Positions 1-32,829 of a stretch of 32,829 nucleotides of DNA are shown here, piece after piece. Positions within the stretch are counted from its first letter, which is position 1; every line of letters begins with the position of its first letter. Source of the DNA: a virus (taxonomy: Duplodnaviria > Caudoviricetes). The stretch lies in the IMG/VR virus record IMGVR_UViG_3300020042_006108, positions 1 through 32,829 of that record. One strand, written 5' to 3'. Below the pieces are notes generated by a model, which saw only the letters and a list, made by a program, of their open reading frames with translations, was not told where the DNA came from and made no database searches. A program made the translations under genes and the position numbers.

Positions 1-590
1 TTTGTCGCTGATTTTTTCAAAATTATTTGCCTTTAATTTTAGAAAATCTGCATAAGGTTGCTTTTCGCCAAATAGCTCAAAATTTCGCCTTAATTCGTTT
101 TCGTGTACTCTTACCGCCCTACTATAATAATCCGCTTTTAAATCGTCTGTAATAGCGTGTAGGGAGTATTTTAAAAGCCAATCGTACAAGTACAAAGGTA
201 AAATTTTAAAATCGTAATCTTTTTTGCGCCATTCTTCGATTTCATTTAACCGTTCTTCGTCGCTCATCTGGTAAGCGATTTCTTTTAATTTCGGTGGTGG
301 CGTTGCAAGTATGCGCTCATTGTTAAAAATTCGGTAAGCGTCCATTATTTTGCAAAAGTAAGGTAGCGTAAATTGATCGTAGTGTTTGACATCCACGTCA
401 AGTTTTCCCGTAACTGCCAACTCAAACGCTTCGATTATTTCGTTTGTGGTTTTATGCCCATAATTTTTTTTAATAAAATTTGAGTTGAAAACATCTTCTT
501 CGGGTGTTGGATATTGTACTTTGCGCAACCCGATTAAAAGAAAAATCCTGTGAAATATTGGCAATAAATCAACGTTGGATAAGGTTGTAG
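1..590. repeat. Left copy of imperfect direct terminal repeat / circular overlap
   Basis: Aligns without gaps to 32240..32829 with 31 substitutions by manual count (~95% identity). Confidence 0.97.
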
Positions 591-669
591 TTTTCGTCGA
601 GTTCTGGGATTCCGTTAGGCCAGCGGTTTGCGTATTCGTTTTGTAGTTGTTGGTTAGTTGGTTTTGCAT
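1..669 (-). CDS. 5' part of a hypothetical protein directly downstream of the replication initiator (same gene as 32171..32829); runs off the window edge
   Basis: The frame is open from ATG 669 (MQNQLTNNYKTNTQTAGLTESQNSTKTTTLSNVDLLPIFHRIF...) after an A-rich leader. Differences between the two copies are almost all synonymous in this frame. Confidence 0.8.
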   Translation of the reverse strand, partial: MQNQLTNNYKTNTQTAGLTESQNSTKTTTLSNVDLLPIFHRIFLLIGLRKVQYPTPEEDVFNSNFIKKNYGHKTTNEIIEAFELAVTGKLDVDVKHYDQFTLPYFCKIMDAYRIFNNERILATPPPKLKEIAYQMSDEERLNEIEEWRKKDYDFKILPLYLYDWLLKYSLHAITDDLKADYYSRAVRVHENELRRNFELFGEKQPYADFLKLKANNFEKISDK

Positions 670-1342
670 TTTGATTTTGTTTTAGTTCAAATAATCCTTT
701 GTAGCCGTTTGCGATTGATTGATGTATAATTTCGCGCGCGGTATTCTGATTTTCGTTTGATAATTTGTAAAGTTGGTTAAACGCGATTTGTTCAGATTTA
801 GTTGTTTTGTATTCAAATTTAAAATTTGTTTTTTTAAAATCTAACCAATCATTCCAATCATTTAAAAATTCATCACTAAAATTATTAGTATTAATAATTT
901 TATTTTCTTTACTTTCCTTTCCTTTACTTTGTTGAGCAGGTTGTTCAACAGGCTGTTCAACACCCTGTTCAACAGTCTGTTGAATTTTAGTTGATTTTCT
1001 TTTGCTTGCGCTTAACTTTCCGCGTTCAGATGCGCTAATTTTTATTTGATTTACTTTTTCTAAATGCTCATTCAAACGAATGCTAAAAAATTGATCGTCT
1101 GTTATTTCAAACAGATTAAAAGAATAAACAACCGCGTTTACTTTTGCCTCAGTAGTGTGCATTTGCATGGCTAAAACAGGAATTAATTGTAAAGGCAAAG
1201 TGCCTCCAGATTCGGCAAGCGATTCGATTAAGTACCAATAAATACCGTAGCCTTCCATTCCTAATTGCATACGCAAAAACAAAACTTTAGTATCGTTTCT
1301 CGCGTTGTAATCGTGTGAAAAATAATAAGTATTTTTTTTCAT
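569..1342 (-). CDS. Phage replication initiator / replisome organiser (DUF4373, Lin1244/Lin1753-like N-terminus)
   Basis: N-terminus MKKNTYYFSHDYNARNDTK..LRMQLGMEGYGIYWYLIE, central VEQ repeat linker, C-terminal WNDWLDFKK..QSIANGYKGLF. Start moved to ATG 1342 because the upstream region is a structured non-coding leader. Confidence 0.8.
   Translation of the reverse strand: MKKNTYYFSHDYNARNDTKVLFLRMQLGMEGYGIYWYLIESLAESGGTLPLQLIPVLAMQMHTTEAKVNAVVYSFNLFEITDDQFFSIRLNEHLEKVNQIKISASERGKLSASKRKSTKIQQTVEQGVEQPVEQPAQQSKGKESKENKIINTNNFSDEFLNDWNDWLDFKKTNFKFEYKTTKSEQIAFNQLYKLSNENQNTAREIIHQSIANGYKGLFELKQNQNAKPTNQQLQNEYANRWPNGIPELDENYNLIQR
880..986. repeat. Probable replication origin: iterons with 12-bp period plus adjacent AT-rich, strand-asymmetric tract
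   Basis: TGTTCAACA at 942, 954 and 966, degenerate copies at 930 and 978, and a pyrimidine/AT-rich tract at 880-929. The layout resembles lambda ori inside gene O. Confidence 0.65.
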
Positions 1343-1436
1343 AAAAATAAAAAAGGGTTCGCGTTGGTAGAAGCAACACAAACCCTTTACAAAGTAAAAA
1401 AAAATCTCGTTTCGGCTTCTACTTCGTAACGAAATT
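1343..1436 (-). promoter_or_regulatory. Structured 5' leader of the initiator gene: two hairpins with complementary loops, each followed by a U-tract
   Basis: Hairpin 1 at 1403-1436 (loop AAGUAGAAGC) and hairpin 2 at 1352-1388 (15-bp stem, loop CUUCUAC). The stems close through G-U pairs only on the minus strand. Confidence 0.7.
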
Positions 1437-1441
1437 GTAAT

Positions 1442-1473
1442 TAAAGATACTACTTTTTTATAAGTATTGCATA
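1442..1473 (-). promoter_or_regulatory. Putative Bacteroidota-type promoter of the initiator gene
   Basis: TATG-N20-TATCTTTA, one mismatch in each box versus TTTG/TAnnTTTG. The predicted start falls at the base of hairpin 1. Confidence 0.45.
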
Positions 1474-1487
1474 TTTTTTTTCCATAA

Positions 1488-1853
1488 TTAAAATTTAAAA
1501 TAACGTAATGAATTAAAAACAAATAAATGAGCATTTTTTAAAATAGTTCGCATTGTTTCATCTGTCATAACCCAGTCGCGCAAAGCGTCCCGGCTATGTA
1601 TAACCGTAGTATGATCGCGCCCGCCCAGCATTTGCCCGATTTCTTTTAAACTATACTTAAACGATTGTTGATTTAACAAGCAATCAACTATTATAAATCT
1701 GGTCATTACCATTTTATACTCGCGTGATTTACTCAAAACCTTTGATTCGTTTACGTTCATGTAATTGCAAACCTTACGTATTATTTCAAAGTGGTTTAAA
1801 TCAAGCACAGGCGATTCTAAAGGGTGTTCAACACAGGGGTTGCATAATATCAT
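1488..1853 (-). CDS. Stand-alone DnaA C-terminal (domain IV) HTH-like protein
   Basis: SLKEIGQMLGGRDHTTVIHS matches the DnaA domain IV signature, preceded by SKSR..(R) as in DnaA. Confidence 0.85.
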   Translation of the reverse strand: MILCNPCVEHPLESPVLDLNHFEIIRKVCNYMNVNESKVLSKSREYKMVMTRFIIVDCLLNQQSFKYSLKEIGQMLGGRDHTTVIHSRDALRDWVMTDETMRTILKNAHLFVFNSLRYFKF

Positions 1854-2826: not shown

Positions 2827-3285
2827 TTATTTTGAAATTGTGGTTTTAATGCTTGTTGTTGATGTTTTAGCGGGTGGGTATAAAGTAACTAGTTCATCCG
2901 AAAATAACACTTCCATAGGGTGTTTTAAAGCCTTTAAAAACGTTTGGCGCTCTTTAATCTTAAAATCAATAATCGTCTTTTGTTCTTCGAGTTCTTTTAA
3001 CTCTGGATCATTGGATAATGTGTAATCGTATTTAGTGCCAACTTCAGCAACTTCGAGTTTAGTACCAGATGCAGTTACGTGCGATTTCCCGTACTTTGAA
3101 ACCTCGTTTAAAATGTAATCTTTGTAATTGCTATTATCTTTTATTTCTTTTATTAGCAAATCCATTTTTGCAAGGTTTTCCGCGAGTTTAATAATATCGC
3201 CTGTTAAACATACATTATCAACTACTTTGGTTGCTAAATATTGAATATTTGCTTTGCTGATTTGTTCGTTAATTTCTGGTAACAT
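2827..3285 (-). CDS. Hypothetical protein adjacent to the ERF recombinase
   Basis: 152-aa ORF with a coiled-coil segment, overlapping the end of the ERF gene. Confidence 0.75.
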   Translation of the reverse strand: MLPEINEQISKANIQYLATKVVDNVCLTGDIIKLAENLAKMDLLIKEIKDNSNYKDYILNEVSKYGKSHVTASGTKLEVAEVGTKYDYTLSNDPELKELEEQKTIIDFKIKERQTFLKALKHPMEVLFSDELVTLYPPAKTSTTSIKTTISK

Positions 3286-3847
3286 TGGCTTCTTTATTAA
3301 TTGTTAAAAAATAGGTTTTCATTTCTTTACTTAATTTATACTTTTCTTCAATCTTCATAACTAAACCGCCACCTTTTAAATAATTAACCGCTTGTTGATA
3401 TTCTGGCATTGATTTATTTAACCAAGGTTTGCCGTCGTCTTTTACAGGCGCTTCTACTTTGCCACTTGCTTTGTTGCCGTCGTCGTCTGCTAAAATATCG
3501 TCGATTTGTAGGTTTAAAATACTACTAATGCAATAACGTCGAGCATAAGTAATACAACTGCCCTTATCCTGTGGCGTGTCCTTTACGGGCTTCATTGTGT
3601 AGGTTGCTTCAATCCATTGGCCAGATGTATGCATTAATAAGCAATAAAGCGAATTTTCGTCTATTGGAAACATTGTAAGCGCAAGGCCAGATTCAGCCAA
3701 TGGCTCGGTAATAGCTTCGATAATTTTAGGTAATGAAGCGTAGGTTGATTTAAAGAAAGGGTTTTTTGCATCCTTTTTAATCCCTTCGCATTTCACGTGG
3801 AACAAAATTAGGCCTTTGGCTAGTTCGTTGATTTCGTTTGATTTCAT
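3269..3847 (-). CDS. erf: ERF-family single-strand annealing protein
   Basis: KNPFFKSTYASL, PQDKGSCITYARRY and DDDGN motifs typical of the ERF family. Confidence 0.9.
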   Translation of the reverse strand: MKSNEINELAKGLILFHVKCEGIKKDAKNPFFKSTYASLPKIIEAITEPLAESGLALTMFPIDENSLYCLLMHTSGQWIEATYTMKPVKDTPQDKGSCITYARRYCISSILNLQIDDILADDDGNKASGKVEAPVKDDGKPWLNKSMPEYQQAVNYLKGGGLVMKIEEKYKLSKEMKTYFLTINKEANVTRN

Positions 3848-4855: not shown

Positions 4856-4955
4856 TTTGTTTAGTTTTTAGTTGTTTTTGTTTGTTTGATAAATCAAAGA
4901 TAATATCTTTATTTTAATTAACCAAATAAAAATAAAATATTTTTATTTATTTTTT
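4851..4955 (-). promoter_or_regulatory. Early promoter/leader repeat, copy 2
   Basis: TTTG (4926-4923), N20, TATCTTTG (4902-4895) is the Bacteroidota sigma70 consensus. Near-identical to 5162..5265. Confidence 0.85.
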
Positions 4956-4986: not shown

Positions 4987-5166
4987 TTACCAATTAGCTT
5001 TACACCATTTGGTTACTTGCATTTTTAAACTTTTTTCACTATGCGCATAAATGCTCCAAATATTAACTCCATTTTCTTTAATGGTTGCTAAGTTCATATC
5101 TCCAGCAAATGCAAATTCAACTTCAAATTTTCTAAGGTTTTCGTAAATCGCAAATTTTGTTGTCAT
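4987..5166 (-). CDS. Early small protein (59 aa), cassette 1
   Basis: MTTKFAIYENLRKFEVEFAFAGDMNLATIKENGVNIWSIYAHSEKSLKMQVTKWCKANW; has its own promoter and leader. Confidence 0.7.
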   Translation of the reverse strand: MTTKFAIYENLRKFEVEFAFAGDMNLATIKENGVNIWSIYAHSEKSLKMQVTKWCKANW

Positions 5167-5265
5167 TTTGTTTAGTTTTTAATTGTTTTTGTTTGTTTGA
5201 TAAATCAAAGATACAACTTTATTTTATTCTACCAAATAAAAATAAAATATTTTTTTATTTTTTTT
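5162..5265 (-). promoter_or_regulatory. Early promoter/leader repeat, copy 1
   Basis: TTTG (5236-5233), N19, TATCTTTG (5213-5206), then an A-rich leader AAAAACTAAACAAAATG. Confidence 0.85.
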
Positions 5266-26661: not shown

Positions 26662-27152
26662 AGTTTCCGACATTCATAATTTTCAATTAGCGCATTATAA
26701 CTCGTTTCCTGTTCTTCTAAATCTTTGCAAATAACTTCGATTTTAAAACTTTGTTTTTCTTCGCCTTCTACTTCATCATTTTCAAATGGTGCAAAATGTG
26801 GTATATCTAAACCCCACTCCGTTAATTGTTCTGCGTCCCAATTATTAGCTAAATCGTCCCAATCCCATTCGCCAAAACCTACGTTATCTTTTATAATAAA
26901 TTGTTTCTTTTCATCTTCGCTCAGGTCTGCGACTTGTTTAACCCATTCGTCTGGAATATCTTTAAACCCTATTTCTTGTAATGCTTTTAATCGCATATTG
27001 CCACCCTGAACAATAAAGTTTTCATCAACTACGATTGGACGCAAAGCCAACATTTTTGGAAAATCATTTATTGATTTAACGAGTTTTTTAAACTTATCGT
27101 CTTTAATTATTCTGGGGTTGTTCGGGTTTGGTTTTACTTTAGATAGTTTCAT
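26658..27152 (-). CDS. ParB/Srx N-terminal domain protein
   Basis: KPNPNNPR, RPIVVDE, GGNMRLKAL and KDNVGFGEWD. Confidence 0.88.
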   Translation of the reverse strand: MKLSKVKPNPNNPRIIKDDKFKKLVKSINDFPKMLALRPIVVDENFIVQGGNMRLKALQEIGFKDIPDEWVKQVADLSEDEKKQFIIKDNVGFGEWDWDDLANNWDAEQLTEWGLDIPHFAPFENDEVEGEEKQSFKIEVICKDLEEQETSYNALIENYECRKL

Positions 27153-27784
27153 ATCATTTGCTTTTCAAATATTGTATAGTTTTGAGTTTTATCATAATGT
27201 TCACACCAATAATTCCATTTGTTTTCCGATAACGCTAACCCTTCATCTTTCATCTTTCTATAATCAGTTCCATTTCCTACATCATGACCAATATGTTTAG
27301 ATTGTAAATTAGGGATGTAGTAATTAATATAATTTAGTTTATTTAAACGATAAGCAAAATCTGCATCCTGTCTGCCATAAGGGTCGTAATCCTCGTTAAA
27401 ATAACCTATTTCATCAATTACTTTACGTGGAATTAAAACGTTACCAAATGCAGTAAATGTTGGATGTATAGATAAGCCGTTAATTTCTATTAATTTATCT
27501 ATTGATTCTACGCAATGTATCCCACACATTCCAGTTTGTTCAATTGTAGTTGAATATTTAACCATTTGAGTTAACCAATTATCAGGCATTTCAATATCGT
27601 TTGCACAGGTAACAATTGCATCGTAATTTTTAGTTAAATCAATCCCTATATTAATTGCTTTTGCAATTCCTTTTTGTTGAATAGTAAATAAATCAAAAGG
27701 ATAACCAGCATTTGATATTGATTGCAAAGCTTGTTTTGTGTGTTCGTGTCTAAAGTAATCCAGAAATAATATTGCTACTTTCAT
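27149..27784 (-). CDS. Glycosyltransferase, GT2 (GT-A fold)
   Basis: GIAKAINIG, CANDI, EIGYFNEDYDPYGRQDADF and HIGH. Confidence 0.85.
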   Translation of the reverse strand: MKVAILFLDYFRHEHTKQALQSISNAGYPFDLFTIQQKGIAKAINIGIDLTKNYDAIVTCANDIEMPDNWLTQMVKYSTTIEQTGMCGIHCVESIDKLIEINGLSIHPTFTAFGNVLIPRKVIDEIGYFNEDYDPYGRQDADFAYRLNKLNYINYYIPNLQSKHIGHDVGNGTDYRKMKDEGLALSENKWNYWCEHYDKTQNYTIFEKQMI

Positions 27785-28263
27785 TTTATAAGATTATCGC
27801 CTATACATTTTGCTGGATTACCAGCGTATTTTTTATAAGGCGTTGTGATTAATTTTTTAGTAATTACCGCACCCATTCCAATCATACAACCCTCTGAAAT
27901 TATTTGACGTTGATGTATAACGGCGTTTAATCCTATGTTGCAATTTTTTGCGATTATAGTATGCCCGCCAATTTTAGCCCCACAACTTAAAGTAACGCCG
28001 TTACAAATTATTGCATCGTGTCCAACGTGGCTATGTTTCATTAAATAACAATTTTCGCCGATTTGCGTTTGATGTTCCGCGCCTGAATCAATTGTTACCA
28101 TTCCCGTTATTCGAGTTCCTTTGCCGATTAAAACACCTTTGTCAATATGTTCTTTGCCTTTCCATTCTGCAGGCATTCCTATAACACAATAAGCACCTAT
28201 GTAAACATCGTCTTCGATAATAACATTTTCTCCTATAACTGCGCTCGGGTGTATGTATTTCAT
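27781..28263 (-). CDS. Hexapeptide-repeat (left-handed beta-helix) acyltransferase, LpxA/NeuD-like
   Basis: IHPSAVIG hexapeptide repeats, HVGHD and YAGNPAK. Confidence 0.9.
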   Translation of the reverse strand: MKYIHPSAVIGENVIIEDDVYIGAYCVIGMPAEWKGKEHIDKGVLIGKGTRITGMVTIDSGAEHQTQIGENCYLMKHSHVGHDAIICNGVTLSCGAKIGGHTIIAKNCNIGLNAVIHQRQIISEGCMIGMGAVITKKLITTPYKKYAGNPAKCIGDNLIK

Positions 28264-28559
28264 ATTTTTGAGTTATAGTATTTGTAAACGTCTTTTAACA
28301 TATCGCAAACGCACGCTGGGCAATTACGATTATAATGATAATGCGGATTAACAACCCGATAAGACTCAATTACTTCGTTATGAATATCGGCGCTAAAATT
28401 AACCAATTCGCCTGTTTGAGCGTAAAGGTCGTAAATATGTTTATGCTTTTGTAATACTTTCAAATGTGGAGCGACGTCGGGGGTTAATGTCGAAAAGGTT
28501 GTATTTTCTTCGCCCCCATTCTCCGAGCGCTTCGCCGTAATCTTGTCTTGCTTTTTCAT
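28260..28559 (-). CDS. Hypothetical protein with CxxC
   Basis: 99 aa, NCPACVC; start uncertain; ATGA-coupled to the next gene. Confidence 0.65.
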   Translation of the reverse strand: MKKQDKITAKRSENGGEENTTFSTLTPDVAPHLKVLQKHKHIYDLYAQTGELVNFSADIHNEVIESYRVVNPHYHYNRNCPACVCDMLKDVYKYYNSKI

Positions 28560-29445
28560 TGTTTATTAAAAAATTTAAATGTTTATACCAATCGCTTTGT
28601 TTTTCAACCCATAATACAGGGGCGTCTGCATCCATACTATAAGGCTCAACCTTTGAGCAAATTACAGGAATACTTTTAACCGACGCTTCAATTAACTTTA
28701 AATTTGATTTGCAACGACTCCAATTATTTGCTACCAAAGGCACTAACATAATATCGGCGTTTTCGTAAATCTCCATGTATTCAGTTGGTCTCATTCCAGC
28801 GTAAGCGTCAAACGGTATTTTTTTATTTGCCGTAAAATAATTTAGCATTTTATTCCAAATTGGACGGCTCGCATCATCATCAGTATAACCGCCTAAAACC
28901 ATTTTAATTTTTTTATTCCCAACTAAACGCTGTAAAGGATATTGTAAAATTTGTAAATCGTGTTCGTGTGTGCAACCCCCCGCCCAAAATATTCGTATTA
29001 GTTCGCTTTCTTTTTTATCGGGTAAAAATTGCCCTTCGCCAAATGGTAAGGCGTTCGGGAATATCTCAACGCTTTTATTAAAAGGATAAATGCGCTCAGC
29101 TAAACGCTCATTTGTACAGGTTACTAAATCAGCCATTAAAAGATTATTTTCAATGCGCCCCATCATTTCTTTGTATTGATGGTAGTTTAAATGATTAGAT
29201 GGCAAAATCCAATCGTCATCCATATCGCACACAATCTTACAATTAATAGCTTCGCGAATAGCGTTTAGGTTATTATCCCAAAGTGAAATCCTATTAAATA
29301 AAAGTATATCGTAGTTTTGAGAAAGCATTTCTTCGTTTGGATAGTTTGATATAACGCCTGTAATATTATCCATATAACCCATCGGCAAACAAACTCTGTG
29401 ATAACCGCATCCGCTATTTGGGTGACTTATTCCTAAAATATTCAT
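28441..29445 (-). CDS. Glycosyltransferase, GT4-like (GT-B fold)
   Basis: SGCGYHRV, DMDDDW, WAGG..H..DL and CKSNLKLIEAS; start at MNILG by ATGA coupling. Confidence 0.85.
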   Translation of the reverse strand: MNILGISHPNSGCGYHRVCLPMGYMDNITGVISNYPNEEMLSQNYDILLFNRISLWDNNLNAIREAINCKIVCDMDDDWILPSNHLNYHQYKEMMGRIENNLLMADLVTCTNERLAERIYPFNKSVEIFPNALPFGEGQFLPDKKESELIRIFWAGGCTHEHDLQILQYPLQRLVGNKKIKMVLGGYTDDDASRPIWNKMLNYFTANKKIPFDAYAGMRPTEYMEIYENADIMLVPLVANNWSRCKSNLKLIEASVKSIPVICSKVEPYSMDADAPVLWVEKQSDWYKHLNFLINNEKARQDYGEALGEWGRRKYNLFDINPRRRSTFESITKA

Positions 29446-29687
29446 TTTATATAATTTGCGATTATGCCAGAAATAAAAATAGTTGCCAAAAATTGACTTG
29501 TCAAAATTGGGCAAAAAAATAAAAACACCGCAACCCAAACCGATAAACAAGTAAGGCAGTCCAACGGTTTTAATCTTTGAAAGCGTCCGTAGTTTAACTT
29601 TCTTTTAATCGCTTGCGGTATTCCTGCAATCTCAATAAAGTAAAAACTAAATGAAATAGATGCAACGATAATAATTAACTTATCCAT
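29442..29687 (-). CDS. Small membrane protein with CxxC (DUF1360-like)
   Basis: KPLDCLTCLSVW flanked by hydrophobic helices. Confidence 0.65.
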   Translation of the reverse strand: MDKLIIIVASISFSFYFIEIAGIPQAIKRKLNYGRFQRLKPLDCLTCLSVWVAVFLFFCPILTSQFLATIFISGIIANYIK

Positions 29688-31478: not shown

Positions 31479-32186
31479 TTATGAAGTACACGCGCAATCA
31501 AACGCTGGACTTAATTGTGTTAAATCTTGTTCTTTAAATAAATTATTTTGTGCAATCTGTTTCATTTGCAACATACTTATATTTTGAAAATATCTATAAG
31601 GTTTCATTTTTTCCTCGTCTGCTATCCATTCGTCCGCTAATTCTGGGTAAACTGATAAAATGTTAATTATTGCATTTTTCCCTTTCATAAAACACAAAGT
31701 ACAATTTCCTAAAATAGAAGGTATTTCAAGCGTATAAGGTTTGTTTTTCCAATATTCATTTATTTGATTTTTATCAATTTTACTTTCAAATAAAGGAAAT
31801 TTATCTGTTACATCAACCCACATTTTTTTACGTCGCGCAACTCTTAACGGCTCATCGTATCTAAAACCAATTAAATTTTCATATTTGCTAATTTTTAAAC
31901 TACGTAAATAACGCCTTGCGGTTTTTATTTTTAATTCAATAGTGCAAAATCTTTTAAAATTATTTGGGATTGCTTTTCTTTTTTCAATTAAATTTTCAAA
32001 CCCACCTTCATATTTTAAACGAATAATTGGTATATTTTCAAACGCTTCAAAATCATTTATAAACTTGTACGTCTTTGGGTGTTCGCGCCCAGTATCGCAA
32101 AAAATAACTAAATCGCCGTCTTTATATTCTTGAATAGTCATGTAAGCCGATGTTTTGCCACCACTGAAATTTATAACTCTTTGCAT
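31479..32186 (-). CDS. PAPS reductase-like PP-loop protein with Cys clusters
   Basis: NFSGGKTS, DTGREH, RFCTIELK, GNCTLCF and terminal CAC. Confidence 0.88.
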   Translation of the reverse strand: MQRVINFSGGKTSAYMTIQEYKDGDLVIFCDTGREHPKTYKFINDFEAFENIPIIRLKYEGGFENLIEKRKAIPNNFKRFCTIELKIKTARRYLRSLKISKYENLIGFRYDEPLRVARRKKMWVDVTDKFPLFESKIDKNQINEYWKNKPYTLEIPSILGNCTLCFMKGKNAIINILSVYPELADEWIADEEKMKPYRYFQNISMLQMKQIAQNNLFKEQDLTQLSPAFDCACTS

Positions 32187-32829
32187 AAGTATTCGTTTAT
32201 AAAAATTCGTTTAAAAATATTGTTTATTGTTGTCAAATCTTTGTCGCTGATTTTTTCAAAATTATTCGCCTTTAATTTTAGAAAATCCGCATAAGGTTGC
32301 TTTTCGCCAAATAGCTCGAAATTTCGCCTTAATTCGTTTTCGTGTACTCTTACCGCCCTTTGATAATAATCAGCCTTTAAATCGTCTGTAATTGCGTGTA
32401 GTGAGTATTTTAAAAGCCAATCATACAAGTACAAAGGTAAAATTTTAAAATCGTAATCTTTTTTGCGCCATTCTTCGATTTCGTTTAACCGCTCTTCGTC
32501 TGTCATCTGGTAAGCGATTTCTTTTAATTTTGGCGGTGGCGTTGCCAGGATGCGCTCATTATTAAAAATTCGGTAAGCGTCCATAATTTTACAAAAGTAA
32601 GGCAGCGTAAATTGATCGTAGTGTTTGACATCCACGTCAAGTTTTCCTGTTACTGCCAATTCAAAAGCTTCGATTATTTCGTTTGTCGTTTTATGCCCAT
32701 AATTTTTTTTAATAAAATTTGAGTTAAAAACATCCTCTTCGGGTGTTGGATATTGTACTTTGCGCAACCCGATTAAAAGAAAAATCCTGTGGAATATTGG
32801 CAATAAATCAACGTTGGATAAGGTTGTAG
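32171..32829 (-). CDS. Hypothetical protein downstream of the initiator (5' end lies at 669 in the left copy; ~245 aa in total)
   Basis: The frame is open to the window edge; same gene as 1..669. Confidence 0.8.
   Translation of the reverse strand, partial: TTLSNVDLLPIFHRIFLLIGLRKVQYPTPEEDVFNSNFIKKNYGHKTTNEIIEAFELAVTGKLDVDVKHYDQFTLPYFCKIMDAYRIFNNERILATPPPKLKEIAYQMTDEERLNEIEEWRKKDYDFKILPLYLYDWLLKYSLHAITDDLKADYYQRAVRVHENELRRNFELFGEKQPYADFLKLKANNFEKISDKDLTTINNIFKRIFINEYLCKEL
32240..32829. repeat. Right copy of imperfect terminal repeat
   Basis: Ungapped alignment to 1..590 at offset 32239. Confidence 0.97.

Follow-up and report, generated by a model that had tools for sequence, protein, structure and literature searches.

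The minus strand of the virus record IMGVR_UViG_3300020042_006108 (Duplodnaviria; Caudoviricetes; 32,829 bases, analysed over its whole length and called the window here, with all positions on window numbering) carries a leader of two hairpins (1343–1449) directly upstream of a gene for a replication initiator, in which the loop of hairpin 1 is complementary to the loop of hairpin 2. This loop-loop pairing (the kiss) covaries across phages, and sequence comparison suggests that the leader represents a real and apparently uncatalogued RNA family, widespread in phages of Bacteroidota, with a predicted function as a variant of RNA-based attenuation. It is probably an attenuator acting in cis, whichever the direction of its effect; the more specific version, in which the kiss favours read-through into the replication genes, has a little under an even chance of being right.

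Anatomy of the leader

The predicted parts of the leader, in the order of the transcript, are:

1442..1473, minus strand: predicted Bacteroidota sigma-A promoter (TATG at 1473; −7 box TATCTTTA at 1449–1442)
1403..1436, minus strand: hairpin 1 (11 pairs, loop of 10 nucleotides (nt)), at the predicted 5′ end of the transcript
1415..1422, minus strand: loop 1 pairing site (7-nt core 1422–1416 plus C1415)
1389..1402, minus strand: single-stranded U/A-rich linker, 14 nt
1352..1388, minus strand: hairpin 2, predicted intrinsic terminator stem, 15 pairs
1367..1374, minus strand: loop 2 pairing site (7-nt loop 1373–1367 plus closing G1374)
1343..1354, minus strand: U tract, from the last G-C pair to the AUG

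Both hairpins described in an earlier note on this DNA are present (1436–1403 and 1388–1352), their complementarity is exact (minus-strand 1415–1422 is the reverse complement of 1367–1374), and the three G-U stem pairs that it had counted were found, one in hairpin 1 and two in hairpin 2. The promoter-like sequence that it had placed upstream is a box of the TAnnTTTG type, although the window copy, TATCTTTA, is a one-mismatch variant and most relatives have TATATTTG (31/59 clusters of the catalogue described below). Transcription is predicted to start near 1437; the sigma-A box of Bacteroidota lies at −12 to −5 (PMC9723704). The U-run that had been noted behind hairpin 1 exists in the window but is not conserved in relatives, and hairpin 1, considered as a terminator, was not called one. 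Hairpin 2 with its U tract looks like an intrinsic terminator, as predicted from a G+C-bounded stem followed by a run of U; the G-C-bounded stem has −16.2 kcal/mol, and no other terminator-like hairpin on the window's coding strand is as strong.

The leader region has a fold z of −4.8 (as stable in 0/200 shuffles), and its minus-strand fold is 9 kcal/mol more stable than that of the opposite strand. When the 61 nt preceding hairpin 2 were shuffled 200,000 times, a match to the loop 8-mer appeared in 49 cases, and a descriptor combining promoter, kiss and terminator had one match in the window (this element) and none in 40 block-shuffled windows. Further copies of loop 1 at 3457 (inside erf) and 17414 are at chance level and are not mirrored in relatives with other loops. 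The nested minimum-energy fold, calculated without kiss energy, hides loop 1 in the U-rich linker (−29.7 versus −28.2 kcal/mol); among the 59 clusters such a fold (full and nascent) was seen only in the cluster of L005, a near-identical relative of the window, and was rejected as a conserved switch since it is limited to these two.

Covariation of the loop-loop pairing

Loci reached through the initiator protein alone share this layout but differ in the letters of their loops. With a strict descriptor, 36 distinct matches were obtained in 3.3 Mb counted on both strands, 35 of which fit the family, the remaining one (L184) looking like chance. In the class to which the window belongs (13 sequences) the loop-loop helix is paired in 91/91 alignment cells, by Watson-Crick pairs only and never by G-U, and five of its seven pairs are changed on both sides. 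The stems tolerate G-U, and hairpin 1 is paired in 90.9% of cells, with changes on both sides at three pairs. Selection at the RNA level, which the earlier note had read from the G-U stem pairs, is supported by the covarying kiss, and the loop complementarity is kept in the homologous leaders of all 13 relatives. In a second, compact class (23 sequences) the kiss is paired in 96.9% of cells, all mismatches coming from one misaligned row, and four of seven pairs are changed on both sides. These figures count sequences rather than events, since related sequences are not independent. Little sequence is common to the classes, or to the classes and the cultured phages described below.

The compact class (alignment A3, e.g. 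L103 1403–1503) also keeps a non-canonical internal loop in hairpin 2 (U-U, G-A, A-A type) and a AAACUUAUU-like linker end, possibly a protein site, a bend or a cleavage site.

Viral and metagenome contigs were also scanned structure-first, with patterns in which the three central bases of both loops were free. At least 479 free-triplet loci were listed, with 52 calls having promoter, both hairpins and tail by structure alone. Among the matches listed, 49/52 calls are complementary at all seven positions and the other three are second registers of elements that also have a perfect partner; 11 of 12 distinct loop pairs among these listed matches have complementary triplets, compared with 1.2 on average and at most 8 in 100,000 permutations. 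The relaxed catalogue, again among the matches listed, holds at least 92 elements in at least 59 clusters at 90% identity, with at least 20 loop pairs. Descriptor counts are lower bounds, since the descriptor of promoter, kiss and terminator missed several of the elements in cultured phages. Loop 2 has U at position 2 in 59/59 clusters and A at position 6 in 57/59, mirrored by loop 1, a conservation that is partly imposed by the search patterns yet is also present in protein-found loci. Sensing of tRNA in the manner of a T-box, suggested by the xU-NNN-Ax form of the loops, was rejected, as the triplets vary freely and correspond to no common amino acid.

Predicted pairing within one molecule

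Pairing of the two loops within one molecule fits these leaders because the loop-to-loop gap is narrow (38–46 nt in 35/35 protein-found strict matches, where 22–88 was allowed) and arm lengths compensate, a long hairpin 1 going with a short hairpin 2 (rho −0.55, 59 clusters). Complementarity extends over 7–9 base pairs (bp), and pairing beyond 7 bp is impossible in 47/59 clusters; such non-extendable pairing fits a stable kiss rather than the initiation of strand exchange. In 50/59 clusters the sense strand gives the better fold, and loop 2 is mostly unpaired in 55/59 nested ensembles, while no conserved competing antiterminator helix was found in the nested ensembles of the 59 clusters.

The earlier note had allowed for an antisense-sensitive switch as well as a cis pseudoknot, and nothing was found to support the former. 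An antisense TAnnTTTG lies within −60 to +200 of the AUG in 7/58 elements, at scattered positions, against about 12 expected (a search for the sigma-A box only), and a third copy of either loop (exact 7-mer, promoter −150 to AUG +300) occurs in 0/59 clusters against 1.4 expected. Foreign loops pair at least as well with the start region as the loops of the leader itself, and neither the window nor any of the aligned leaders (13 and 23 sequences) has an AUG that could open a leader peptide between the promoter box and the start codon of the initiator.

Cultured phages carrying the leader

All ten cultured phages that were folded (DUF6291-linked or leader-similar regions) have a promoter box, a 7–8-nt complementary pair and a terminator-like hairpin. 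These are Cellulophaga phages phi19:3, phi13:2, phi46:3 and phi18:3, and Flavobacterium phages tooticki6-1, lillamy9-1, morran9-1, mumin6-1, elemoA_7-9A and 11b. The pyrimidine-rich site comes first in all four Cellulophaga phages, in three of which (phi19:3, phi13:2, phi46:3) hairpin 1 is weak or not predicted. The loops of tooticki/lillamy, morran and mumin differ by compensated changes. The element is directly testable in cultured phages of environmental Flavobacterium and Cellulophaga, which offer such natural compensated loop variants; the tooticki leader matches 46 INPHARED records. With a descriptor that misses some elements, none was found in Flavobacterium phage 1/32 (whole genome) or in a 12-kilobase (kb) Porphyromonas phage region.

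Phage tooticki6-1 carries a pair of elements that differ in their loops, one preceding a NUMOD4 endonuclease gene and the other the replication operon; they are arranged in series within the early-replication region and constitute the only matches in that genome. A second element with its own loops before NUMOD4/HNH genes was seen here (L716 11590–11690) and in L093 (about 3270–3370), L476, L481 and L497, all genomes that already have one element before their replication genes. At the position of the tooticki6-1 endonuclease cassette, lillamy9-1 (L717 1315–1349) instead has an Rfam DUF805b RNA (52 bits), before a ParB-like gene.

Genes behind the leader

Sorted by the N-terminal sequence encoded downstream (checked on 21 representatives), the 92 elements precede 43 Lin1244_N-like, 15 DUF1376-like, 8 HTH_36, 4 DUF6291 and 3 DnaD-like initiators, and the remainder 8 HNH genes, 4 methylases and 7 other open reading frames (ORFs). 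Single HNH genes (HNH/NUMOD4) are among those fronted by the element. Since the leader persists in front of different genes, autoregulation by their products is disfavoured; a compact RNA module appears to be retained while unrelated initiator families swap behind it, and to be reused by HNH cassettes. Small ORFs, methylases or HNH genes lie between leader and initiator in several loci (L003 2702–2811, L016 2691–2800, L010, L112 and L130–L137), and because of these inserted genes the leader is taken to mark the start of the operon rather than the initiator itself. The element could serve as a marker of replication operons in unannotated phage genomes.

A different arrangement was seen in L013–L015, L089–L091, L108 and L128, where one strong hairpin lies 4–11 nt before the initiator AUG with neither U tract nor kiss; all except L128 also lack the promoter box. 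Judged by this layout, these hairpins likely exert a different, translational control.

Proposed effect on termination and its direction

In the proposed mechanism, a 5′ leader of ~90 nt would control its own terminator through the loop of hairpin 1. Transcription would start at hairpin 1 from the internal promoter, or arrive from upstream, and then meet an intrinsic terminator, with hairpin 2 and the U tract ending the transcript unless kissed. Loop 1 would have folded and be accessible by the time loop 2 emerges from the polymerase, and could capture it; closure of the terminator stem would then be slowed or strained and the polymerase would read through. In this way the element would fix the amount of read-through, whatever the gene behind it, for DNA-acting proteins whose dosage matters, with a terminated RNA of ~90 nt as by-product. 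The control of termination or translation by cis pairing, as envisaged in the earlier note, survives best as a predicted effect of the kiss on termination, and less well for translation.

Several features are consistent with termination. The 11 nt before the AUG contain on average 8.9 T in 30 protein-found clusters, compared with 3.1 T and 6.1 A before 45 window ORFs. In Flavobacterium, upstream adenines favour initiation, and their loss, or structure at −20 to +20, lowers it (PMC6847099); the U tract therefore probably lowers translation and would be retained for some other purpose. Across leaders the distance to the AUG ranges from 9 to over 50 nt; in mumin6-1, elemoA_7-9A, tooticki6-1, lillamy9-1 and morran9-1 the AUG lies 24–52 nt past the start of the U tract, so that termination rather than occlusion of the start site appears to be the constant. 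From 124 distinct initiator upstream regions, 42 without a strong hairpin were set aside; among the 82 counted, 45 have both U tract and kiss, 32 have neither, 2 have only the U tract and 3 only the kiss. Terminators lacking a kiss partner are therefore rare (2/47). The kiss is taken to favour read-through for two reasons: a terminator ahead of these essential genes almost always has a kiss partner, and polymerase has to get past both elements where two lie in series.

A number of points weigh against this direction, or against the mechanism as a whole. The direction rests on the co-occurrence of U tract and kiss, which related sequences inflate (the Fisher p is uncorrected for phylogeny). One locus, L157 (about 1255–1350), keeps promoter and terminator with no hairpin 1, being possibly a natural mutant or an assembly error (it is a 3.2-kb contig of a metagenome-assembled genome, MAG), and L012 has the kiss with no U tract. 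The terminator stem can be complete while the loops kiss, so that the kiss need not block termination. By rough helix geometry, with approximate dimensions and bend angles, the freshwater classes have a nearly taut linker (estimated span/linker 0.82–0.92), which is long enough in only 66–76% of clusters, although it is loose in the cultured Flavobacterium phages (gap 48–49 nt). The AUG lies 9–13 nt from the stem in 58/59 clusters (partly imposed by the pattern) and in 30/30 protein-found clusters, leaving room for a possible added effect on translation. Finally, transcription start, termination and the kiss itself are predictions.

Alternative explanations

The same covariation and the same linkage to the U tract would be seen if the kiss locked the terminator on, with termination as the default and a phage or host factor, or temperature, opening the kiss at the right time. 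The kissed state would leave hairpin 2 intact, the loss of hairpin 1 in L157 would be easier to tolerate if the kiss were a brake, and the downstream genes are dosage-sensitive. This explanation is nevertheless unlikely, as no conserved regulator that might open the kiss was seen by eye among the upstream ORFs of the family (listed for 45/59 clusters), which vary, the serial elements in the early-replication region of tooticki6-1 need substantial read-through, and terminators without a kiss are so rare.

The diversity of loops (at least 20 pairs among the 59 clusters) would be explained by an RNA-only timer of the P4 CI/IsrK type, operating across the phylum with no protein. The first transcripts would pass by means of the cis kiss, and terminated or processed leader would then accumulate and pair in trans with new loop 1, displacing the cis kiss and shutting off replication or homing-endonuclease genes in a loop-specific manner. 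Leaders that act in trans on the locus they come from are known (PMC4825925), three loop variants with compensated changes are found among co-occurring Flavobacterium phages of hosts LMO6/LMO9, and two elements in one genome differ in their loops (tooticki6-1 and three IMG/VR contigs), although this last may reflect separate origins. If such a timer existed, the three central loop bases would be an address, each phage and each element would be under its own control, and co-infecting phages whose loops match would interfere with one another. The timer is quite unlikely, however: the third site is missing (0/59), a kiss in cis would leave neither loop of the free RNA available, the loops change by small compensatory steps and the stems vary equally, and the Muminvirus carriers are described as lytic only (PMC7077304), so that immunity would not be needed.

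Position at the predicted 5′ end of the transcript would also suit a two-hairpin RNA that is itself the product (a stable small RNA or decoy), or that acts in the manner of put to make transcription of a long operon resistant to termination. The main window genes are on one strand, with about 28 kb downstream containing several terminator-like sites, and the compact class conserves an internal loop and a linker motif. On the other side stand the scarcity of sequence common to classes or cultured phages and the presence of the element before single HNH genes; we consider this explanation very unlikely.

A switch of translation, in which the kiss keeps hairpin 2 either on top of or clear of the site where ribosomes load onto an mRNA that has no Shine-Dalgarno sequence, would draw on the short distance from stem to AUG (30/30 protein-found clusters), on the sensitivity of Flavobacterium initiation to structure and adenine loss, and on L012, but is highly improbable given the 24–52 nt from the U-tract start to the AUG in five cultured phages and the finding that foreign loops pair with the start region at least as well as the leader's own. 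A target for an antisense RNA that blocks the kiss, as in I-complex plasmids or pT181, has in its favour that loop-loop recognition before a rep gene is a hallmark of such systems (PMC10724649), and is scarcely credible in view of the scattered and infrequent antisense boxes of the sigma-A type, the better folding of the sense strand and the missing leader peptide.

Comparison with known systems

Rfam 15 at gathering threshold gave no match in the window and none over the element in 40 related loci, in agreement with the earlier note, which could name no family; elsewhere in these loci only a tRNA and a DUF805b RNA were matched. Fifteen sub-threshold matches were judged to be chance. The best was to BTnc201/MasB (25.7 bits versus a gathering threshold of 105), which resembles the element in its length of about 100 nt, two hairpins and U tail, while MasB differs in being a narrowly conserved chromosomal small RNA (PMC10994844). 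No such element is named in the parts compared of PMC2864571 or of PMC5737381, with its 224 motifs; the supplement of the latter and the candidate sets of PMC8040213 were outside the comparison. No published description of the element was found in the openly licensed literature searched, subscription papers being outside this scope. We know of no described hairpin that controls termination by kissing the loop of the terminator itself. To our knowledge, little has been described of how Bacteroidota phages, most genes of which have no assigned function, time and dose their replication genes. Elements of this kind could supply orthogonal, tunable terminators for Bacteroidota genetics.

Leader RNAs of rep genes in I-complex plasmids (ColIb-P9 repZ, IncB/IncK repA; Inc/RNAI) likewise use loop-based pairing as control (PMC10724649). 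In those systems a pseudoknot switches translation and a countertranscript blocks it, whereas here the pairing is loop to loop and hairpin 2 is predicted to be a terminator; what the two have in common is loop pairing within one RNA ahead of a rep gene, in this case as a predicted covarying 7-bp helix. The I-complex rep pseudoknot needs a translated leader peptide coupled to rep. In P4 immunity (seqA, CI RNA, seqC), P1/P7 c4 and Gifsy-1 IsrK, too, a leader close to the promoter contains sites complementary to each other, and transcription ends early, ahead of genes for replication or for an antirepressor (PMC4825925). The P4 system uses three such sites and a CI RNA that is processed, whereas the element has two sites of 7–9 bp and no Rfam match of the c4 type, and some of its carriers (Muminvirus) are described as lytic only. 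The kinship with IncI/IncB and P1/P7 C4 that the earlier note had brought up is therefore one of analogy: as no antisense promoter signal, third site or leader peptide was found, the element is a member of neither group.

The loops of ColE1 RNAI/RNAII are also fully complementary and form a bent loop-loop helix in replication control (PMC2602780). There, two RNAs from opposite strands control primer formation, whereas both loops of the element lie in one sense transcript and mostly pair over no more than 7 bp. In pT181, termination upstream of rep is driven by a countertranscript and needs both the antisense RNA and a competing antiterminator helix. Termination before rep set by RNA-RNA pairing is common to pT181 and the element, for which no such antisense RNA or antiterminator was found. 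In HK022, put is a conserved sequence that binds RNA polymerase and suppresses distant terminators; the sequence of the element, by comparison, is not common across classes.

Genome setting

The first and last 590 bases of the window (1–590 and 32240–32829) are 94.7% identical, and this overlap of the ends makes a circularly permuted phage genome of ~32.2 kb likely. That the ends are only 94.7% identical suggests assembly of a circular genome from two related strains. Identified genes are on the minus strand (Erf, lysozyme, portal, terminase, methylases), and no integrase or repressor was found in the two sets of ORFs scanned (38 and 42 of the 98 listed). The closest relatives of the initiator in GTDB genomes (55–58% identity) are on Chitinophagaceae and Sediminibacterium MAG contigs, a weak, similarity-based hint at the host of the window phage; some element carriers are also on MAG contigs.

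Features around the leader are:

1488..1853, minus strand: gene upstream of the leader, Bac_DnaA_C helix-turn-helix protein, 121 amino acids (PF08299, E 1.9e-16)
1450..1485, minus strand: 11-codon micro-ORF, its stop abutting the promoter box
569..1342, minus strand: replication initiator, Lin1244_N domain, 257 amino acids (PF14297, E 3e-11; phrog_2562, E 1e-15; O-like phrog_678)
930..974, minus strand: four 9-bp repeats with a 12-bp period, inside the initiator gene
1..669, minus strand: following ORF in the operon (phrog_26016, unknown function), truncated at the end of the window and resumed at 32171–32827

Close homologs of the initiator span 249–261 amino acids. A 321-amino-acid open frame running from 1534 through the leader was rejected, as homologs match only from the AUG at 1342. 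The micro-ORF was likewise rejected as a leader peptide; it is absent from the closest relatives and is likely a recombination remnant. The repeats at 930–974 are followed by an A+T-rich stretch and, from their arrangement, are likely origin iterons marking the replication origin; we take them to resemble the iterons of lambda O.

Early promoters were found at 5236 and 4926 (TTTG-N19/20-TATCTTTG, Bacteroidota sigma-A type), in near-identical promoter cassettes arranged in tandem (4860–4945 and 5165–5260, minus strand) directly after the terminator behind the lysozyme gene. Each cassette drives a very short ORF, and a short G+C-rich palindrome is common to two of these ORFs, lying just behind them (about 4977–4959 and 4696–4678). 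Glycosyltransferases, a hexapeptide acyltransferase and a PAPS-reductase-domain gene lie beside DNA methylases at 27152–29550 and 31479–32186 (minus strand), possibly forming a cluster for modification of DNA or of the surface.
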